Positions 1,612-9,146 are shown, counted from the first letter of the stretch. The stretch is DNA of 41,426 nucleotides from a virus (IMGVR_UViG_2711768022_000004); one strand, 5' to 3'. Made by a program: numbers and translations. Notes: a model not told the origin generated them from the letters alone.

Positions 1612-2207
1612 GTAAGCGTGCAGCAAGAACCGTATTGACGGGAATGTGTTATTCAGTCGGCAGTGCTACGCGCCAGGGGAGCAGTTCGCCGACCCGGTTT
1701 ATCGGCCAGTCGGCTATGACGTCAAGGACATAGCGGAGGTAGCTTTCTGGCTCCACTCCGTTCAGTTTGCACGTCCCGATCAGGCTGTACAGCAGCGCTC
1801 CCCGCTCTCCTCCATGATCCGAACCGAAGAACAGGTAGTTTTTGCGGCCCAGACTGACCATCCGCAACGCATTTTCAGCGATGTTATTGTCCGCCTCAGC
1901 CCAGCCATCATCTGCATAGTACGTCAGCGCCGGCCACTGGTTCAGGGCATATGCGAACGCTTTCGCCAGTTCTGAGTGTCGCGACAGGGTTTTCATCTTT
2001 TCACGCAGCCAGCTTTCCAGGGATTTCAGCAGCGGTTTCGTTTTCAACTGACGTTCGGCAAGGCGCTGTTTCAGCAGGAAGATGTCGTCAGAAGAGATGT
2101 CGTTCATAAGCCCGTATTTTACCGGGCTTATTCTGTGACAACCAGGATAAAGAGATTTACAGCATGGTCAGGGAGGTCAGCAGCCGCTTAGGCTGTCTAT
2201 AGCGCGG
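1612..2207 (-). mobile_element. IS66-family insertion sequence, right-hand portion (terminal repeat plus 3' end of transposase gene)
   Basis: GTAAGCG at 1612-1618 resembles IS66-family terminal repeats (from memory); transposase C-terminal fragment 1649-2107; frame open upstream to about 2167. Confidence 0.55.
1649..2107 (-). pseudogene. IS66-family transposase (TnpC/orf3) C-terminal fragment; about 1 kb of 5' coding sequence absent
   Basis: 152-aa translation contains IAENALRMVSLGRKNYLFFGSDHGGERGALLYSLIGTCKLNGVEPESYLRYVLDVIADWPINRVGELLPW, matching the conserved C-terminus of IS66 transposases; no N-terminal part in the window. Confidence 0.75.
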
Positions 2208-2213
2208 CGATTT

Positions 2214-2280
2214 TTTTGATACCGATTTGCATTTCATTTGATACCGCTGAAAAACGCCGATACGCAACTTATTTGATACT
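2214..2280. repeat. prophage right-end transposase-binding repeats (attR-like)
   Basis: Three direct copies of the core TTTTGATACC / ATTTGATACC / ATTTGATACT at 2214-2223, 2236-2245, 2271-2280, in inverted orientation relative to the copies at the other end. Confidence 0.55.
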
Positions 2281-2325
2281 AAATCGGCGCTTTTCTTTTG
2301 AGTTTTAGAATGAGTTTTTAAGCGT

Positions 2326-3063
2326 TCATTCACTCTCTTTCAAACCAGTTTTAACTGTTTGTGGTTTTGGGTAAGGCTGGACTTTGAATAGCTTTGTGTT
2401 AAGGCGTTTTCTGGCTCTCTTGTCCAGAAACCGGATGTAACGAAACTGACGGAATTTATGAACACTGGCTCTGTCGATATTAGCCCGCAGATGTTCACCT
2501 CGCTGTCCTCCTCGTTTGATTGCATTCTTGCAAATCTCGTGATACCACTCGCCATCAAGTTCATAGAATGTTGTTTCATGACTGCCTACATAATCAAAAT
2601 TGCTTGCCTGGTACACGACACCAAGACAGCCACAACGCTCATCTGCAAACGACTGAACCCACTGCACCTGCGGATAAAGTTGTCTGATTAGTTTGAGCGC
2701 GTAACTGATTGCCCTTGATTCGGAGTTTCTCGGCATACAGTCATGCAGCCATAACCGGTTAAGCTCCATATATTCGCGGTTCTGCGTGCCAGTTACGACG
2801 CGTGCACCATTGTTTGGATTAAGGGCATAACCCCATTGCATTACGCCAACCAGCTCCCGTTCTGAAAATATGCCCAGATGAAGGTAGGAATTATTTACGA
2901 AACGATGGCTGTAATGTTTATTGACGACGACCAGCCGGGCCAGCCAGCAACTTATTGTCTCAACCCGTAACTCACGGGAGCCATAACCGACGATATTGTC
3001 GTTATAGTGAATAAGTTCAGGCGTGCTGATGATACGGGATGTAACTTGCTTTCTGTTCCCCAC
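2326..3063 (-). CDS. mom: Mom-like DNA modification protein (start uncertain; GTG at 3063 assumed, frame open to 3258)
   Basis: Immediately downstream of and overlapping a Com-like zinc-finger ORF at the prophage right end, as in Mu; about 245 aa if started at GTG 3061-3063. Confidence 0.6.
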
Positions 3064-3217
3064 GACAGGATTTCCTTGTGTATGTGGGGTGCTCTGTGGC
3101 GCTCTGAGATGTGATTTGATTGAGGGTTTTACAGCGCGGACATTTAACTTCCAGATAACTGAAGCTGGCTCGTGCCAGTAGCTTGTTACAATGTCGGCAC
3201 CGTATGTTTCGATACAT
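3017..3217 (-). CDS. com: Com-like zinc-finger translational activator of mom
   Basis: [35 protein letters not shown] has the C-x2-C...C-x2-C pattern and resembles Mu Com (IRCKNCNKLL...RCPRCK); AGGAGG Shine-Dalgarno upstream of ATG 3215-3217. Confidence 0.7.
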
Positions 3218-3260
3218 GGCCGCATAACCTCCTGCTTTGTTGTTGATATCTTTATCACTC

Positions 3261-3350
3261 AATCGATCGACAAAAACGATCGATTTGATTTATTTAATTG
3301 ATACAACAAATAACACGAAATGTCATTAGCGAAAATTTATGAGTTTGATC
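3261..3350 (-). promoter_or_regulatory. candidate mom-operon promoter/regulatory region with GATC cluster
   Basis: Perfect 9-bp inverted repeat AATCGATCG(N7)CGATCGATT at 3261-3285 carrying two GATC sites (3265, 3278), third GATC at 3347; lies 45-130 nt upstream of com start. Confidence 0.35.
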
Positions 3351-3473: not shown

Positions 3474-3767
3474 ATGGACAATCATGTAACGACGAGAAAT
3501 CGAAAAATGATTGAAAATGCGGAAATCTATAATGATTATTTTTCCGATTATTCAGATGCCTGCAAATACAGTTCGAGTGCGGGAGAGTTCATATGCTTCA
3601 ACTTTTTTATTAAATCTTATGTTTTTCCTCCACAGCAAGAAGATGGAGGTGTGCCACCTCCTGAAATCACTTTGCACCGTATAGCCTCCGTCTCAATGAT
3701 GGAGCAACAGGCTAATGAGCTGTATAGCATTCTGGGAACGATTCTACAAAAGCGTGAATCGGACTAA
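3474..3767 (+). CDS. hypothetical protein (cargo gene, opposite strand to the operon)
   Basis: 97-aa ORF with AAGAGG Shine-Dalgarno; embedded in AT-rich DNA between com and the esterase-like gene. Confidence 0.45.
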   Translation: MDNHVTTRNRKMIENAEIYNDYFSDYSDACKYSSSAGEFICFNFFIKSYVFPPQQEDGGVPPPEITLHRIASVSMMEQQANELYSILGTILQKRESD

Positions 3768-3934
3768 TGATACCGGTTCATTTGCCTGCCCGGATGGGGA
3801 AGCAGGATTGACTGCTCCATAAGCAGCTATATTTCTGAATACGAAATACTATCCAGCGATTACATATGGCTGGATAGCGGCAAAGATGTTTTCATTAGTG
3901 TCAAACCGGCAGAGGACACCACCGGTTTGTATTG

Positions 3935-4224: not shown

Positions 4225-4407
4225 TCAGGGCTGGGTCGGGTCTTTTGGGAGCGGAGTTACCTGCGCTGTTTTACTGAGTTTTTCAGCTGCTGCGTCCTCA
4301 ATTTTGCGGCGAACATAATTTCTGATGGCCTTATAACCACCACTCACCAGATATAACGCACATACTGCCGTGCAGAAATACAATAAAATAAGCTGTAAAA
4401 ATGTCAT
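4225..4407 (-). CDS. small membrane protein (single predicted transmembrane helix followed by a charged tail)
   Basis: 60 aa from ATG 4405-4407: MTFLQLILLYFCTAVCALYLVSGGYKAIRNYVRRKIEDAAAEKL; GGGAGGG Shine-Dalgarno upstream. Confidence 0.5.
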   Translation of the reverse strand: MTFLQLILLYFCTAVCALYLVSGGYKAIRNYVRRKIEDAAAEKLSKTAQVTPLPKDPTQP

Positions 4408-4422
4408 TATCCCTCCCAATTA

Positions 4423-4449
4423 TTGACATGGTGTTGACACCGGTAATAT
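4423..4449 (+). promoter_or_regulatory. candidate sigma70-like promoter on the plus strand
   Basis: TTGACA at 4423-4428 (second TTGACA at 4434-4439) and TAATAT at 4444-4449; spacing 15 bp, suboptimal. Confidence 0.3.
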
Positions 4450-4503
4450 CTGTTAGGTAAAAAGGTGCACTGCATTTTTTGCTTTGGATATAACGATCTT
4501 TTT

Positions 4504-4544
4504 GCCGCCGGTTTCTTGTTTTCCCTTACCGGCGGCATTTTTTT
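4504..4544 (+). terminator. rho-independent terminator (plus-strand orientation)
   Basis: 9-bp GC-rich stem GCCGCCGGT / ACCGGCGGC around a 15-nt loop, followed by T7 run at 4538-4544. Confidence 0.6.
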
Positions 4545-4551
4545 ATCCTGC

Positions 4552-6606
4552 TTACGCGTTATTCACTTCCACCACGATACTGTCAATCAGTACCGGGTAA
4601 GTCGCATTTTTAGTGATATCGGTCACGCGCAACTTGTCTGCCGTAAACGTGCCGACCGGAGACTGCGACAGCATGAATGGTGTCCCGTCCTTACCATCAA
4701 TGACCGGCGTCACCTCAATACTGTTGTTACCGGCAAAACGGAAGCCCAGCGTATGCCATTCGTTATTAAATGCGCCGAATGACCCCAGCTTCGTGTTCTG
4801 CGCCGTGTTTCCTTTGTGATACATCACGTTAAGGTCTGTGGCATCGCTCTGTACGTAGAACGATGCCAGCAGGTTATGACCGGCATTTCCTTCCAGAGTA
4901 ACCCCTTGCGGCAGGGCAGAAACCGGCCAGTACAGCGCCAGTGCGTACTGATTAGCCGTAAGCGCGCCATCGAGTTTAAAACGACAACTGACAAGACCAC
5001 CTTTACCCAGCAGGTCCGCACCATTACCAGCATCATGCTCAAGGTACCAGGGGGCTCTTCCTGTTTCCTTGGTCAGTTTCATTGCCTTACCCCCGCTGGC
5101 TCCGGCATCATCCACGATTTGAGCCTTGCCACCTCCGGCAGCCCAACCCTGTGGTGTCAACCGTCCTTCAGACTCAGATGCCCGGTAAGCAAATAGCGTA
5201 CTCATCGTCGTGGTGTCTGCGGGTGGCGTGGACGGTTTTGATGGTGTATCAGGTGACGGCTTCTCATCCGGTGGTGTCACGGTCTGCCCACGCATCAGTT
5301 CAGCCGTGCGCCCTGCATGGAGCATAATAGCTGAGGCCAGACGGTCTGAAATGACGCCCCTGCGTGCCCATGAGCTGAAATGGCTGTCACGCTGTGTCGA
5401 AACAAAACTGCCCTGGGTTCGGGATGCTGCACCGTAATACCCGACAGCCACAATATCCGGGTCTTCCGCCGGAGCATTCGTTGGCGTGCTCTGTCCATTC
5501 TCATCCGTCAGGAACGGTACAAAGAAAATTTTCTGTGCTTCCTTGCCTTTGTAGCCACCGTATACTGCCTCATATTTATCGGTGCCAGCGTTTTTCCAGT
5601 AATACGTGGTATCACCGCAAATCCACGGCACCGTGGTGGCATTTCCACTCACGCACTGCGCAGCAAGCGGAGCCAGGTCAGTTCTGAACTGCTGAACCAT
5701 GGCCGTGAATAAACTATTATGCTGCTGGCTTCCTGAGGCAAGGTCTGCCTCTCCCTGCATCCAGACCACAGCCAGAAGTTTGTTTTTCGGGTTTTTCGCC
5801 AGCGCGACTTTGGTGCGGCTTACCAGGTCCTGATACAGAGGTTTACCGGCCCCCCAGCGTGAAGAATCAGCGGAAGCACCGCTGGCCTCACTGAATGAGC
5901 CGTCGGCTCCAGTGGTGAATGCTGACCCGCCACGACAACAGGGCACCAGAAGTATCCCGGCATTCTGTGGGATATAGGGAAGCAGTTTTTTGGCAATATG
6001 CAACCCCTGACCGACAGTCCCGTACTGGCCTTTTGCCAGATCAGCTTTCGGGTGGTTTATCCCGCTCATATCCTGAACATCATGCAGGCAGTGGTCTGCC
6101 GGAATGATGTCGTTGTATGTACACGACGTACCGTTGGGCGTTACCGTACTGCGGCGTGCCAGTTGCTTAATGCGTGGGTCCGGGCGGTCAAACGAATCCG
6201 GTAACGGCAGCCCCTCGCCGTAGGCCATGCCATTTGACTGACCCGCGAGAATGACAACAAAGTAATATTCCGGCTCTGAACTGCTGCCATTCGTGCTACC
6301 GGAAGGCCCGGCGTTATCCGGTGCATTCCAGTCGGAGGGCGTGAGCGTTCCGGCCACGTCAGATGTGATTGGAATGATGCCAGTCACGCCTGAACTGGTG
6401 ATTTCTGCACTGGGATTACCGGATACCGGCATTACCCATAATGGCTCTTTCGTGCTGAAGCGGATCACGCAGTCTGCGAAGGTGATCCCCCCTTTATTAC
6501 CCGAAGGGCGGAAAGGGCTTTCAATAAATGCCACCGTGCCACCGGCAACCTTGACTGAAAACTCTCCGGGCATGGCGGAGAGCATTTTCCACTTGGAGTC
6601 TGACAT
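4552..6606 (-). CDS. SASA/SGNH-type carbohydrate esterase-like protein (sialate O-acetylesterase-like), prophage cargo
   Basis: 684 aa; VVILAGQSNGMAYGEG resembles the GQSNM motif of sialate O-acetylesterase-type domains; no obvious signal peptide; sits between invertase and com-mom. Confidence 0.55.
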   Translation of the reverse strand: MSDSKWKMLSAMPGEFSVKVAGGTVAFIESPFRPSGNKGGITFADCVIRFSTKEPLWVMPVSGNPSAEITSSGVTGIIPITSDVAGTLTPSDWNAPDNAGPSGSTNGSSSEPEYYFVVILAGQSNGMAYGEGLPLPDSFDRPDPRIKQLARRSTVTPNGTSCTYNDIIPADHCLHDVQDMSGINHPKADLAKGQYGTVGQGLHIAKKLLPYIPQNAGILLVPCCRGGSAFTTGADGSFSEASGASADSSRWGAGKPLYQDLVSRTKVALAKNPKNKLLAVVWMQGEADLASGSQQHNSLFTAMVQQFRTDLAPLAAQCVSGNATTVPWICGDTTYYWKNAGTDKYEAVYGGYKGKEAQKIFFVPFLTDENGQSTPTNAPAEDPDIVAVGYYGAASRTQGSFVSTQRDSHFSSWARRGVISDRLASAIMLHAGRTAELMRGQTVTPPDEKPSPDTPSKPSTPPADTTTMSTLFAYRASESEGRLTPQGWAAGGGKAQIVDDAGASGGKAMKLTKETGRAPWYLEHDAGNGADLLGKGGLVSCRFKLDGALTANQYALALYWPVSALPQGVTLEGNAGHNLLASFYVQSDATDLNVMYHKGNTAQNTKLGSFGAFNNEWHTLGFRFAGNNSIEVTPVIDGKDGTPFMLSQSPVGTFTADKLRVTDITKNATYPVLIDSIVVEVNNA

Positions 6607-6682: not shown

Positions 6683-6711
6683 AAAAAAGCGTCACGGTAC
6701 TTTTGGTGACG
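6683..6711 (-). terminator. rho-independent terminator overlapping the invertase stop codon
   Basis: On the minus strand, stem CGTCAC / GTGACG with 10-nt loop followed by CTTTTTT; invertase stop codon lies inside the stem. Confidence 0.5.
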
Positions 6712-7258
6712 GAGCTGGTGAGGCAGGAAAATAACGATAAAGGGTGGAAAGGCCAATATCAAATATCAGTGCGATTTGTTTACGGGACTCGCCATTAGCC
6801 AGCAAACGGGCGATTTGCTCCCGCTCTTTCTCTGTCAGTTTCTGAGGTCTGCCGCCATGACGCCCCTGAGCACGGGCAGCAGCAAGACCCGCGCGTGTAC
6901 GTTCAATAATGAGTTCCCGCTCCATTTCCGCCAGCGCGCCCATTATATGGAAAAAGAAACGTCCCATGGGAGTGGATGTATCAATATTGTCCGTAATGCT
7001 GCGGAAGTTAACGCCGCGTTGCCGGAGTTCTTCTGTTAAAAGGACAAGGTGCTGCATACTGCGTCCAAGGCGATCCAGTTTCCAGACCAGCAGGGTATCC
7101 CCTGGCCGGAGTCGCTTTAATGCGCGTTTAAGTCCGGGACGCTCCCTTGTCTTACCGCTTATTCTGTCTTCGAAAAACAGCTCACATCCTGCACATTCCA
7201 GCGCATTTCTTTGTAGCGCCGTATTCTGGTCATTTGTTGACACCCTGATATACCCAAT
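6692..7258 (-). CDS. gin: serine DNA invertase (Gin/Pin/Cin/Hin family), 5' end runs into the assembly gap
   Basis: Translation IGYIRVSTNDQNTALQRNAL...GDTLLVWKLDRLGRSMQHL...PMGRFFFHIMGALAEMERELIIERT is near-identical in pattern to Gin; frame continues upstream of the listed GTG start into the N-run. Confidence 0.85.
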   Translation of the reverse strand: MGYIRVSTNDQNTALQRNALECAGCELFFEDRISGKTRERPGLKRALKRLRPGDTLLVWKLDRLGRSMQHLVLLTEELRQRGVNFRSITDNIDTSTPMGRFFFHIMGALAEMERELIIERTRAGLAAARAQGRHGGRPQKLTEKEREQIARLLANGESRKQIALIFDIGLSTLYRYFPASPAPSPKVP

Positions 7259-7488
7259 NNNNNNNNNNNNNNNNNNNNNNNNNNNNNNNNNNNNNNNNNN
7301 NNNNNNNNNNNNNNNNNNNNNNNNNNNNNNNNNNNNNNNNNNNNNNNNNNNNNNNNNNNNNNNNNNNNNNNNNNNNNNNNNNNNNNNNNNNNNNNNNNNN
7401 NNNNNNNNNNNNNNNNNNNNNNNNNNNNNNNNNNNNNNNNNNNNNNNNNNNNNNNNNNNNNNNNNNNNNNNNNNNNNNNNNNNNNNNN
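7259..7488. other. assembly gap (run of 230 N); true length unknown
   Basis: Literal N characters in the sequence. Confidence 0.99.
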
Positions 7489-7489
7489 G

Positions 7490-7660
7490 GGAGCAGAGAA
7501 CAGGCAGGTAATGTACGGTGGGGCATATTACTCTGCGTACGGTAATGTTATGGCAGGCCTGCAGATTGACAGTAAAGTTGATGCTTCAAACGATTTTATA
7601 GCATTCAGACCCCTGCAAAAATTAGTCGGAGGTACATGGATTACGGTATCTCAGTTATAA
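7490..7660 (+). CDS. alternative tail-fibre variable C-terminal segment (Sv'-like), 5' part lost in the gap
   Basis: Plus-strand frame ending ...FRPLQKLVGGTWITVSQL at 7660; ending resembles the C-terminus of the minus-strand fibre (...[10 protein letters not shown]); followed by a tfa gene on the same strand. Confidence 0.6.
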   Translation, partial: GAENRQVMYGGAYYSAYGNVMAGLQIDSKVDASNDFIAFRPLQKLVGGTWITVSQL

Positions 7661-7711
7661 ATAGTCAGTAAATAATATATTTTAAAACAGATTTATTTCC
7701 AGGAGGATTTT

Positions 7712-8233
7712 ATGGAACTAAAAAATATAACCCGTTATTATCCTGAAAATATGCCATATGGTAATAATGTTCAGTATTTCCAGAGTGAAGATGGTAAGGA
7801 TTTCTACGAATCCCTGCCATTATTCACCAAAAAATATAAACTTTGCATAACACCTGACAGCGGCGTTATCTGCTCAATATCACAGGACGCCTCGGCGCTG
7901 TATCCTGCGGGGTTTTCTGTGGTTGAGGTCGATGAACTCCCTGAAGGCACGGATATTTCAGGAAACTGGAAGTTTGATAATGGCATAATCTCCCGTATTC
8001 CGGTTAACTACGCAAGAAAACTGGAAGCAATGCGCCAGTCATATCTTAATCAGGCATATGAAAAAATTAATGACTGGAGAACGGAGCTACAACTGGGCAC
8101 CATCAGCGATGAAGACAGAGCAGCACTTACCCAATGGATGGCATACATCAGTCAGGTGAAGAAAATGGAACTACCCGCCATTAAAACAGAAGCTGAATTT
8201 AACGCCATTAAATGGCCTGAGCAGCCACAGTAA
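7712..8233 (+). CDS. tail-fibre assembly protein (P2 G / Mu U-like)
   Basis: 173 aa; DASALYPAGFSVVEVDELPEG and the C-terminal ISDEDRAALTQWMAYISQV region resemble P2 gpG-type chaperones; AGGAGG Shine-Dalgarno. Confidence 0.8.
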   Translation: MELKNITRYYPENMPYGNNVQYFQSEDGKDFYESLPLFTKKYKLCITPDSGVICSISQDASALYPAGFSVVEVDELPEGTDISGNWKFDNGIISRIPVNYARKLEAMRQSYLNQAYEKINDWRTELQLGTISDEDRAALTQWMAYISQVKKMELPAIKTEAEFNAIKWPEQPQ

Positions 8234-8236
8234 TAA

Positions 8237-8256
8237 AGAAGGCCGGAAGGCCTTCT
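8237..8256. terminator. hairpin between convergent tfa and fibre genes (possible bidirectional terminator)
   Basis: AGAAGGCC-GGAA-GGCCTTCT perfect 8-bp stem in the 31-bp gap between the two stop codons; flanking U-runs are weak. Confidence 0.4.
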
Positions 8257-8264
8257 GAATATCA

Positions 8265-9146
8265 TTATATACTTGCAGCCGTCACCCATGCTCCATTTAA
8301 CAGATACTGCAACGGCCGGTAATACACGCCGCCGACGTTATCTGCCGTATTCTTACCGACATCCTGTACTTTAATTCCGGTAAGAACATTGCCGCCCCCC
8401 AGATTCAGATCCCAGCTTTCCCATGTTCCGGGCATATGTGCGGTCACCGACCCCAGTCTTATGGCGGTTACTGTTCCTGATGAGATAGTGATATCCTGCG
8501 TCCCGTCAAAGGGAACACCATTAATTGTGTGGGCATTTGCCAGCCTGTTCGCGGCAACGGCGGTGCCGTCCGATGGCAGGGCATTCGCCGCCCTGTTTAC
8601 CGTTTCCCGTAAACCGACGTTATCGATAAAAGCCCCTTTATCCGGAATGTCTGCGCCGTTCTGCTCCCTGCGCAGGTAACGGTTATCACCTTCGCTTTTG
8701 CTGTAAACATCCAGATTATTACGGGCGGTTCCCTTATTCTCCAGGTCGGCGAGATTCTGATCCTTCGCCAGGGCATTAACGTCAGCGGGACCAAGACTGT
8801 TTTTTGTGGCAAGCGTCCCCAGACCAAGATAACCACGGGCCAGACGCTGGGCCTCCGCACCGGCATCAGCAATTTCTTTCAGGTTATTTTTCCGGGAAAA
8901 GGCATTCGCAGCGATAATGGCTTTAATGGACAGCGTAAGCTGGTTTAACTGCGCCTTATCCGGCTGAATACTGGCTTCAGCCAGAATATTCAGCAGTTCG
9001 GCCTGGAGAATATTCAGCCAGTCCTGACCAATCCAGCTGATACCTTTTTGTCCGTCACCTTCGGTAAACCAGGTGGTGGTATTACTCTGCGCCGGTGCCA
9101 GCGCAGGCATATTCGCCACGCCGGAATTATTATCAACATGAAACAT
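8265..9146 (-). CDS. tail fibre protein (constant N-terminal part plus currently expressed variable C-terminal part)
   Basis: 293 aa; N-terminus [18 protein letters not shown]...[30 protein letters not shown] typical of Mu S / P2 H-type fibres; contains the gix-like site. Confidence 0.8.
8604..8629. other. gix/hix-like crossover site for the serine invertase, inside the fibre gene
   Basis: TTCCCGTAAACC-GA-CGTTATCGATAA: two 12-bp half-sites in inverted orientation around a 2-bp core, resembling gix (TTCCTGTAAACCGAGGTTTTGGATAA, from memory); falls at fibre codon about 173. Confidence 0.55.

Follow-up and report, generated by a model that had tools for sequence, protein, structure and literature searches.

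The stretch of DNA analysed here, hereafter the window, comprises 41,426 nt of viral sequence (IMGVR_UViG_2711768022_000004) and is a segment of the Escherichia coli chromosome adjoining kdp, rhsC and ybfB that bears a Mu-like prophage. Prophage genes seen in it include mom, com, a Gin-like recombinase, tail fibre, baseplate and tape measure genes. The prophage end was set at approximately position 2198 by comparison with a second Mu-like phage, which is inserted in an Stx2c phage; 2198-3262 is the right end of the prophage, with host rhsC and ybfB to its left, and its first part (2198-2298) matches the terminus of another Mu-like phage at 93% identity. This end carries mom (2327-3034, minus strand) and com (about 3017-3262, minus strand), the latter annotated by RefSeq as frameshifted in an identical genome. 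At the other side, the recombinase gene (6692-7264) is neighboured by partial tail-protein and tail-fibre assembly genes (7329-8276) on the strand opposite to the other tail genes, a layout like that of the invertible G segment of Mu.

Between the recombinase gene and com/mom lies a cassette of three minus-strand genes, encoding in the order of transcription an esterase, a DUF1378 protein and a DUF826 protein. The second Mu-like phage has the same three-gene cassette. The 144-bp gap between the first two genes (4408-4551) contains promoter and terminator features that are directed the opposite way. The features considered in this work are as follows.

6606 to 4552, minus strand: SASA/DUF6645 carbohydrate esterase gene (NanS-p-like), 684 aa; PF03629 and PF20350.
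4407 to 4225, minus strand: DUF1378 small membrane-protein gene, neighbour of the sRNA; PF07125 (E = 9e-32), PHROG 494.
4189 to 3935, minus strand: DUF826 gene, 84 aa, located 3' of DUF1378; PF05696 (E = 6e-16), PHROG 311.
4423-4449, plus strand: hexamers TTGACA (4423-4428) and TAATAT (4444-4449) of the first-pass annotation, 15-nt spacer, not conserved.
4434-4439, plus strand: -35 hexamer TTGACA of the sRNA promoter, invariant in family members.
4458-4463, plus strand: -10 hexamer TAAAAA, 18-nt spacer, invariant in family members.
4469-4544, plus strand: predicted sRNA of about 76 nt, homologue of EcOnc33, placed by homology, the 5' limit of CLASH reads and the terminator.
4470-4489, plus strand: conserved single-stranded, seed-like 5' region CUGCAUUUUUUGCUUUGGAU, the most conserved unpaired stretch of alignment A2.
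4503-4544, plus strand: Rho-independent terminator with a 10-bp stem, a 15-nt pyrimidine-rich loop and U7, identified by hairpin scan, folding and family conservation.

The DUF1378 open reading frame encodes 60 aa (MTFLQLILLYFCTAVCALYLVSGGYKAIRNYVRRKIEDAAAEKLSKTAQVTPLPKDPTQP) and is preceded by a Shine-Dalgarno sequence, GGGAGGG, located 4 nt 5' of the ATG. The protein has a single hydrophobic segment, a helix at its N-terminus, so the first-pass description of a single-helix protein gene with a strong ribosome-binding site is accurate. The PHROGs category of all three cassette proteins is 'unknown function'. In lambdoid prophages, the late-region order is Q, stx or another moron, esterase, DUF1378, DUF826, holin and lysozyme. 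Nucleotide homology between the window and the cassette of an O157 lambdoid prophage extends over 4274-6276 and includes the intergenic region. At the nucleotide level, the lambdoid NanS-p-like genes are 69-85% identical to 4552-6276 of the esterase gene but show no homology to its first approximately 110 codons (6277-6606). In addition, the cassette, next to the recombinase gene, has no clear promoter of its own. Downstream of it, between DUF826 and com, a 97-aa open reading frame (3474-3767, annotated by RefSeq as hypothetical from 3507) lies on the plus strand; it has no Pfam or PHROG match. A hairpin at 3903-3928 (AAACCGG, 12 nt, CCGGTTT, then GTATTGTT on the plus strand) separates this frame from the DUF826 stop codon and may be its terminator.

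The terminator in the esterase-DUF1378 gap had been proposed at 4504-4544. It is confirmed with bounds of 4503-4544: the arms TGCCGCCGGT (4503-4512) and ACCGGCGGCA (4528-4537) pair with each other, and T7 follows at 4538-4544, 8 nt from the esterase stop codon. When both strands of the window were scanned for hairpins of at least eight perfect pairs followed by at least six T residues, this was the only site, and shuffled versions of the window (approximately dinucleotide-preserving, by neighbour-matched swaps) contained on average 0.03 such sites. A standard terminator scan did not report it because that scan allows loops only up to 8 nt. The RNA from 4457 to 4544 has a folding energy of -27.4 kcal/mol (z = -3.9). 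What follows the hairpin on the minus strand is AAAAAG; the terminator therefore acts on plus-strand transcription only and cannot end the esterase transcript. Nor does it merely end a longer plus-strand gene, since no plus-strand gene enters it: between the nearest one, the 97-aa frame, and the terminator lie the antisense strands of two genes and the hairpin at 3903-3928.

Two sets of promoter-like hexamers precede this terminator. Those named in the first-pass annotation do exist, but they are not conserved: in eight relatives about 85% identical to the window, TTGACA at 4423-4428 is replaced by TTAATA, TTGATA or TCGACA, and TAATAT at 4444-4449 by TAATAC. In the same eight sequences, TTGACA at 4434-4439 and TAAAAA at 4458-4463 are unchanged. 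Hence, judging from this conservation, the hexamers at 4423-4449 are probably not the working promoter; the conserved one lies about 11 nt to the right. Its -10 hexamer does not have the canonical final T and was not picked up by the consensus promoter scan, and any strength ascribed to a promoter of this kind is presumptive. The 5' end of the transcript was set near 4469 because this position aligns with the 5' limit of the EcOnc33 halves of CLASH reads (described below), which is the first C of CCUGCAUG.

The first-pass annotation saw no convincing coding frame on the plus strand, and relatives of the sequence bear this out. Two mechanical open reading frames exist, 4465-4782 (GTG start) and 4484-4600 (TTG start); neither has a ribosome-binding site, and both cross the terminator into the esterase gene in antisense. 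Alignment A2, which comprises 11 distinct family members, contains indels of 1, 2, 5, 6 and 15 nt, and these exclude a coding role for the sRNA region. In view of the missing ribosome-binding sites, the course of both frames through the terminator and the 1-, 2- and 5-nt indels, a short protein-coding gene between promoter and terminator can practically be dismissed.

What the unit is becomes clear from its homologues. With the 119-nt unit as query, 355 of 5426 complete E. coli genomes yielded a copy at a coverage of 80% or more, with at least 99% identity in 21 and 80-90% identity in 327, including many of O157:H7. The match to O157:H7 genomes (80% identity over 115 nt, E = 9e-21) falls, in a lambdoid prophage, into the gap that separates the esterase and DUF1378 genes. 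For prophage Sp6 of strain Sakai, the alignment extends from the DUF1378 ribosome-binding site to the esterase stop codon, with 86.5% identity over the 5' 89 nt (E = 5e-20) and both terminator arms aligned. The supplementary oligonucleotide list of Tree (2014) gives AAATGTCGTTATATCCAAAGCAAAACATGCAGGAC as the Northern probe for EcOnc33. The O157 locus and Sakai Sp6 each contain the reverse complement of this probe at a single, exactly matching site, which lies between the esterase gene ECs_1527 and the DUF1378 gene ECs_1528, on the strand opposite to both. From this exact probe location and the 86.5% identity, we conclude that the window element is an allele of EcOnc33. Table S2 of the same study places EcOnc33 in Sp6 on the minus strand with a Rho-independent terminator flag, and records an Hfq-CRAC pass in 5 of 5 datasets and a Northern band of about 71 nt; the hfq-mutant phenotype column is blank (Tree 2014). 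The plus-strand non-coding transcript of about 60-90 nt that had been suggested for the window is thus supported by homology to an Hfq-crosslinked RNA, and for the window itself is a prediction. We found no functional characterisation of EcOnc33, and no main-text discussion of it, in the searchable literature.

The two alleles share the slot between esterase and DUF1378, the antisense orientation, the promoter layout, the terminator stem, the loop core and the 5' stretch CUGCAU-UUUUGCUUUGGAU. They differ at seed position 7 (window 4476), which is U in the window and G in EcOnc33. In addition, the loop of the window allele is 6 nt shorter and its U-run before the terminator 2 nt longer. Because of the shorter loop, the predicted RNA of 76 nt is 6 nt shorter than the Sakai RNA; the Northern estimate of about 71 nt agrees within gel accuracy, and 76 nt lies within the 71-82 nt expected of an EcOnc33 RNA. 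The contexts also differ: the window copy lies in a Mu-like prophage, between gin and com/mom, and beside an esterase whose N-terminal approximately 110 aa are unlike those of the O157 lambdoid esterase, whereas EcOnc33 lies in a lambdoid late operon.

Rfam contains no model for this RNA. At gathering thresholds no match was obtained in the window, nor did any Rfam 15 model match the equivalent gap in Sakai, E2348/69, POCJ13 or the second Mu-like phage. Permissive thresholds yielded only sub-threshold matches (Esr41 at 22 bits; STnc480, Spot 42 and others at 18 bits or less), which we took as generic similarity of a terminator preceded by a U-rich part. A search of the phage collection with the window intergenic region alone gave no match.

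In alignment A2, the family shows a conserved unpaired 5' part, a variable middle and a nearly invariant terminator, whose stem and loop core (CUUGUUUUCCC) vary little or not at all within the family. The conserved 5' stretch reads C(C)UGCAU(G/U)UUUUGCUUUGGAU, and the column corresponding to window 4476 is polymorphic (G, U or gap). RNAalifold, when applied to the 11 members, predicted essentially the terminator alone; with so little variation in the stem, it detected no compensatory pairs. A variant form, A' (contigs L178 and L224; minus strand, 3' of the esterase), is one in which a 15-nt insertion has doubled the UUUUUGCU-type seed segment (CCUGCAUUUUUUGCUCAGCAUAUUUUUGCUAAGGAU), and a G-C pair of its terminator stem is changed to G-U.

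Enterobacterial sRNAs usually bind Hfq through a module made of a U-run before the terminator and a U7 tail. In the window RNA, the UCUUUUU directly upstream of the terminator and the U7 tail fit such a module.

Evidence on targets comes from RNase E-CLASH in EHEC, for which Table EV7 of Waters (2017) contains about 40 rows of EcOnc33 hybrids. The best-scoring hybrid joins CCUGCAUGUUUUGCUUUGGAU to AUUUAGGUAGCAAACAUGCAGACCC of ECs5359 and is represented by five reads, in both replicates and both orientations, with overlap of an Hfq site and an FDR of 2.7e-4; a second hybrid joins the same 5' stretch to ECs0890 (Waters 2017). ECs_5359 is arcA, and AUUUAGGUAGCAAACAUGCAGACCC spans its start codon. 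Since the same 5' stretch is ligated to arcA and to ECs0890, it behaves as a seed. Repression of arcA translation by EcOnc33 is a reasonable hypothesis in view of the predicted pairing and the five CLASH reads. The predicted duplex with the arcA start region has an energy of -20.2 kcal/mol for EcOnc33 and -16.9 kcal/mol for the window allele, in which the U-for-G mismatch at 4476 falls in the middle of the pairing. As the seed column is polymorphic, alleles may differ in their targets. Long-range duplexfold calculations of the RNA against start regions were dominated by long interior loops and gave no useful information; among four such comparisons, the esterase start had a marginal value (-28.2 against -20.1 +/- 3.5 kcal/mol, p about 0.02).

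Taken together, the interpretation that we prefer, with a probability of roughly three in four, is that 4434-4544 on the plus strand is a free-standing gene for an Hfq-dependent, trans-acting sRNA, an approximately 85%-identical allele of EcOnc33 located in the esterase/DUF1378 slot. According to this model, a sigma-70-type promoter (TTGACA at 4434-4439, TAAAAA at 4458-4463) would start transcription near 4469, and the intrinsic terminator at 4503-4544 would stop it after about 76 nt. Hfq would bind the RNA through its unstructured, U-rich 5' part together with the U7-tailed terminator, and the 5' part CUGCAUUUUUUGCUUUGGAU would pair with translation-initiation regions of host mRNAs and thereby repress them. 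Among the candidate targets, arcA is the best linked by experiment, for the O157 allele; for the window allele, we infer expression, Hfq dependence, repression and the target set.

Three alternative explanations were also considered. One is the type I toxin-antitoxin-like pair suggested by the first-pass annotation, in which DUF1378 would be a membrane toxin and the divergent RNA its antitoxin. The DUF1378 gene has a strong ribosome-binding site, and its 60-aa product with a single hydrophobic helix shares the small hydrophobic character of such toxins, although this character is non-specific; the RNA gene begins 27 nt from the DUF1378 start codon on the other strand, and the slot adjoins all phage DUF1378 copies examined. 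In these respects, the locus resembles tisB/istR-1, shoB/ohsC and zor/orz, where a small hydrophobic protein gene is likewise accompanied by a divergent short RNA. It differs from them in having no specific complementarity to the DUF1378 start region: the RNA overlaps neither the coding region nor the ribosome-binding site, its predicted duplex with the start region is weaker than the shuffle mean (-10.5 versus -15.1 kcal/mol), and its complementarity is confined to a read-through transcript, at 60-135 nt before the start codon. It also differs in that a scan of the intergenic region found no minus-strand promoter for DUF1378, and in that the two parts occur independently: prophages PP2 and PP5 of E2348/69 (PasA, PasC) have the slot without DUF1378, and in one case, Cedecea neteri, DUF1378 has no slot upstream. 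That locus was the only one obtained when genome contigs were searched with a DUF1378 alignment; a single DUF1378 protein gave no match. Furthermore, DUF1378 matches PHROG 494, of unknown function, no toxic phenotype of it is reported in the searchable literature, and EcOnc33 is captured in trans on core-genome mRNAs by CLASH. The toxin-antitoxin reading is therefore unsupported, and we regard it as very improbable.

The main rival is a cis-antisense role, in which the RNA would act chiefly by pairing with the complementary part of the esterase-DUF1378-DUF826(-holin) transcript and tune the genes 3' of the esterase through RNase III cleavage or interference by convergent transcription. Since both neighbours are transcribed from the other strand, any read-through transcript from esterase to DUF1378 would contain the full complement of the RNA. 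This reading draws further on the missing DUF1378 promoter, on the constant position of the slot at the esterase junction in lambdoid and Mu-like phages alike, and on the RIL-seq targets of PasA, which include esterase mRNA 3' ends. However, the RNA body changes entirely from type to type whereas the genes downstream do not change in kind, the conserved features are those of Hfq-dependent trans-acting sRNAs, and EcOnc33, PasA and PasC are recovered on core-genome mRNAs. We consider a mainly cis-antisense role unlikely, though it could coexist with a trans-acting one. More doubtful still is the possibility that the hairpin is only an insulator that blocks stray antisense transcription into the esterase, with a functionless RNA and incidental hexamers. 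The imperfect -10 hexamer, TAAAAA, would suit it; yet the -35 hexamer, spacing and -10 hexamer are conserved across at least eight otherwise unrelated intergenic types, no other unpaired stretch in the family is as well conserved as the 5' part of the RNA, and EcOnc33 accumulates, binds Hfq and forms mRNA hybrids.

The intergenic types just mentioned come from a set assembled from 33 viral contigs found via DUF1378, 80 found via the esterase C-terminus, and reference phages. For this purpose, a protein-guided search was used instead of a 14-mer of the esterase 3' end, whose matches on viral contigs were mostly due to chance. An antisense -35/-10 pair and a GC-rich hairpin with a T-run near the esterase stop codon are present in 27 of the 29 distinct intergenic sequences. 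These 27 are all the cases in which the esterase C-terminus is at least 50% identical to that of the window; the two exceptions accompany distant esterases (43-44% identity). The shared promoter is TTGAC-N17/18-TAAAAA, in antisense orientation. Each of the other intergenic types has a single TTGAC[A/T], at the position aligned with window 4434-4439, and TAAAAA follows the -35 hexamer by 17-18 nt in types A, A', B, C, POCJ13/VT2-Sakai, L037 and L238; in type L227 the -10 hexamer is TAGAAA. These types, of which A and A' are EcOnc33-like, make at least eight kinds of RNA body, to which PasA/PasC are added. The terminator stems differ from one another yet remain paired: GCCGCCGG/CCGGCGGC, CCGCCAGT/ACTGGCGG, CCGCCAGCG/CGCTGGCGG, CTCCCGTCAGG/CCTGCCGGGAG, GCCAGCAC/GTGCTGGC and GCCAGCG/CGCTGGC. 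Types other than EcOnc33, EcOnc51/52, PasA and PasC are predictions from sequence, and none of the types is represented by a model in Rfam 15. The candidate RNA of type C, which is found in the second Mu-like phage, is about 115 nt long and has an internal hairpin, ACUCC-UUCG-GGAGU; in some copies (L025 versus L026/L231/L242) a two-position change to ACUAC...GUAGU looks like compensatory re-pairing.

PasA (85 nt) and PasC (79 nt) are 'pathogenicity-associated' sRNAs of EPEC E2348/69 (Pearl Mizrahi et al. 2021; Zhu, Shabalina and Storz 2026 preprint) that have been validated by Northern analysis and lose stability when Hfq is missing. Zhu, Shabalina and Storz described the arrangement esterase-pasA/pasC-holin, and the EHEC homologues are EcOnc51 and EcOnc52. 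Like the window RNA, PasA and PasC are encoded just 3' of a SASA esterase gene and antisense to it, are of similar size (79-85 nt), and have a terminator U-run that abuts the esterase stop codon; their association with Hfq is known by experiment. In sequence they are unrelated to the window RNA: short-word blastn gave only 8-nt T-run matches and did not find the PasA/PasC seed GCCAGCACC in it. The stems also differ (GCCAGCAC or GCCAGCG in PasA/PasC, GCCGCCGG in the window), the PasA seed overlaps its own terminator stem whereas the conserved stretch of the window RNA is at the 5' end, and the E2348/69 loci have neither DUF1378 nor DUF826 alongside. The interval from PasA to the esterase stop codon in PP2 of E2348/69 contains a second, PasC-like promoter-terminator unit in tandem (L003 2267-2415, minus strand), which matches the end of the 236-nt 'minor' form of PasA; the slot can thus hold two sRNA units.

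Other sRNAs of prophage moron regions, the anti-sRNAs AsxR/AgvB (RF02703, RF02702; 51-60 nt) and PasD/STnc100, resemble the window family in combining a conserved 3' part with a variable 5' part. They sit upstream of the esterase, between stx or another moron and the esterase, and neither AsxR, AgvB nor STnc100/PasD has an Rfam match in the window. In particular, STnc100, which precedes the esterase in Sakai Sp6 and in POCJ13, has no match in the window. The covariance model of Esr41 (RF02676) gives a weak full-length match at 4464-4546 on the plus strand, with 22.2 bits against a gathering score of 102. The two RNAs share a U-rich 5' part, a GC-rich stem and the tail UUUUUUUAU, whereas Esr41 is encoded in the EHEC island SpLE1 near iha, outside the esterase slot. 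Zhu et al. reported Esr41 covariance-model matches near PasD loci; these might be sRNAs of the slot downstream of the esterase rather than true Esr41.

The slot and its esterase cassette are thus present in both lambdoid and Mu-like prophages. A broader proposal is that the esterase-DUF1378/holin junction is a general, hypervariable sRNA slot, in which RNA bodies have been swapped or rewritten many times while the cassette moves between prophages, so that each prophage would bring its own Hfq-dependent regulator of host genes; the G-to-U change in the seed would then shift the target set of the window allele away from that of EcOnc33, for example by weakening the pairing with arcA. For this proposal, we see the arguments as evenly balanced. 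Evidence that the slot is a conserved scaffold of promoter and terminator for interchangeable RNA bodies is, with the link between EcOnc33 and the slot of PasA/PasC, the most useful outcome beyond the window itself.

Taken alone, the window contains an ordinary prophage sRNA gene. EcOnc33 was known before as an uncharacterised prophage sRNA; what is new is this allele and its prophage context, by which an unannotated 110-bp unit without an Rfam 15 model gains a concrete identity and a candidate function. In addition, three separately reported sets of sRNAs, namely EcOnc33, EcOnc51/52 and PasA/PasC, are linked to one conserved genomic slot, and Mu-like prophages of E. coli other than EHEC carry this slot as well. 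BLAST surveys with PasA-D may therefore underestimate how widespread prophage sRNAs acting on global regulators such as ArcA are.
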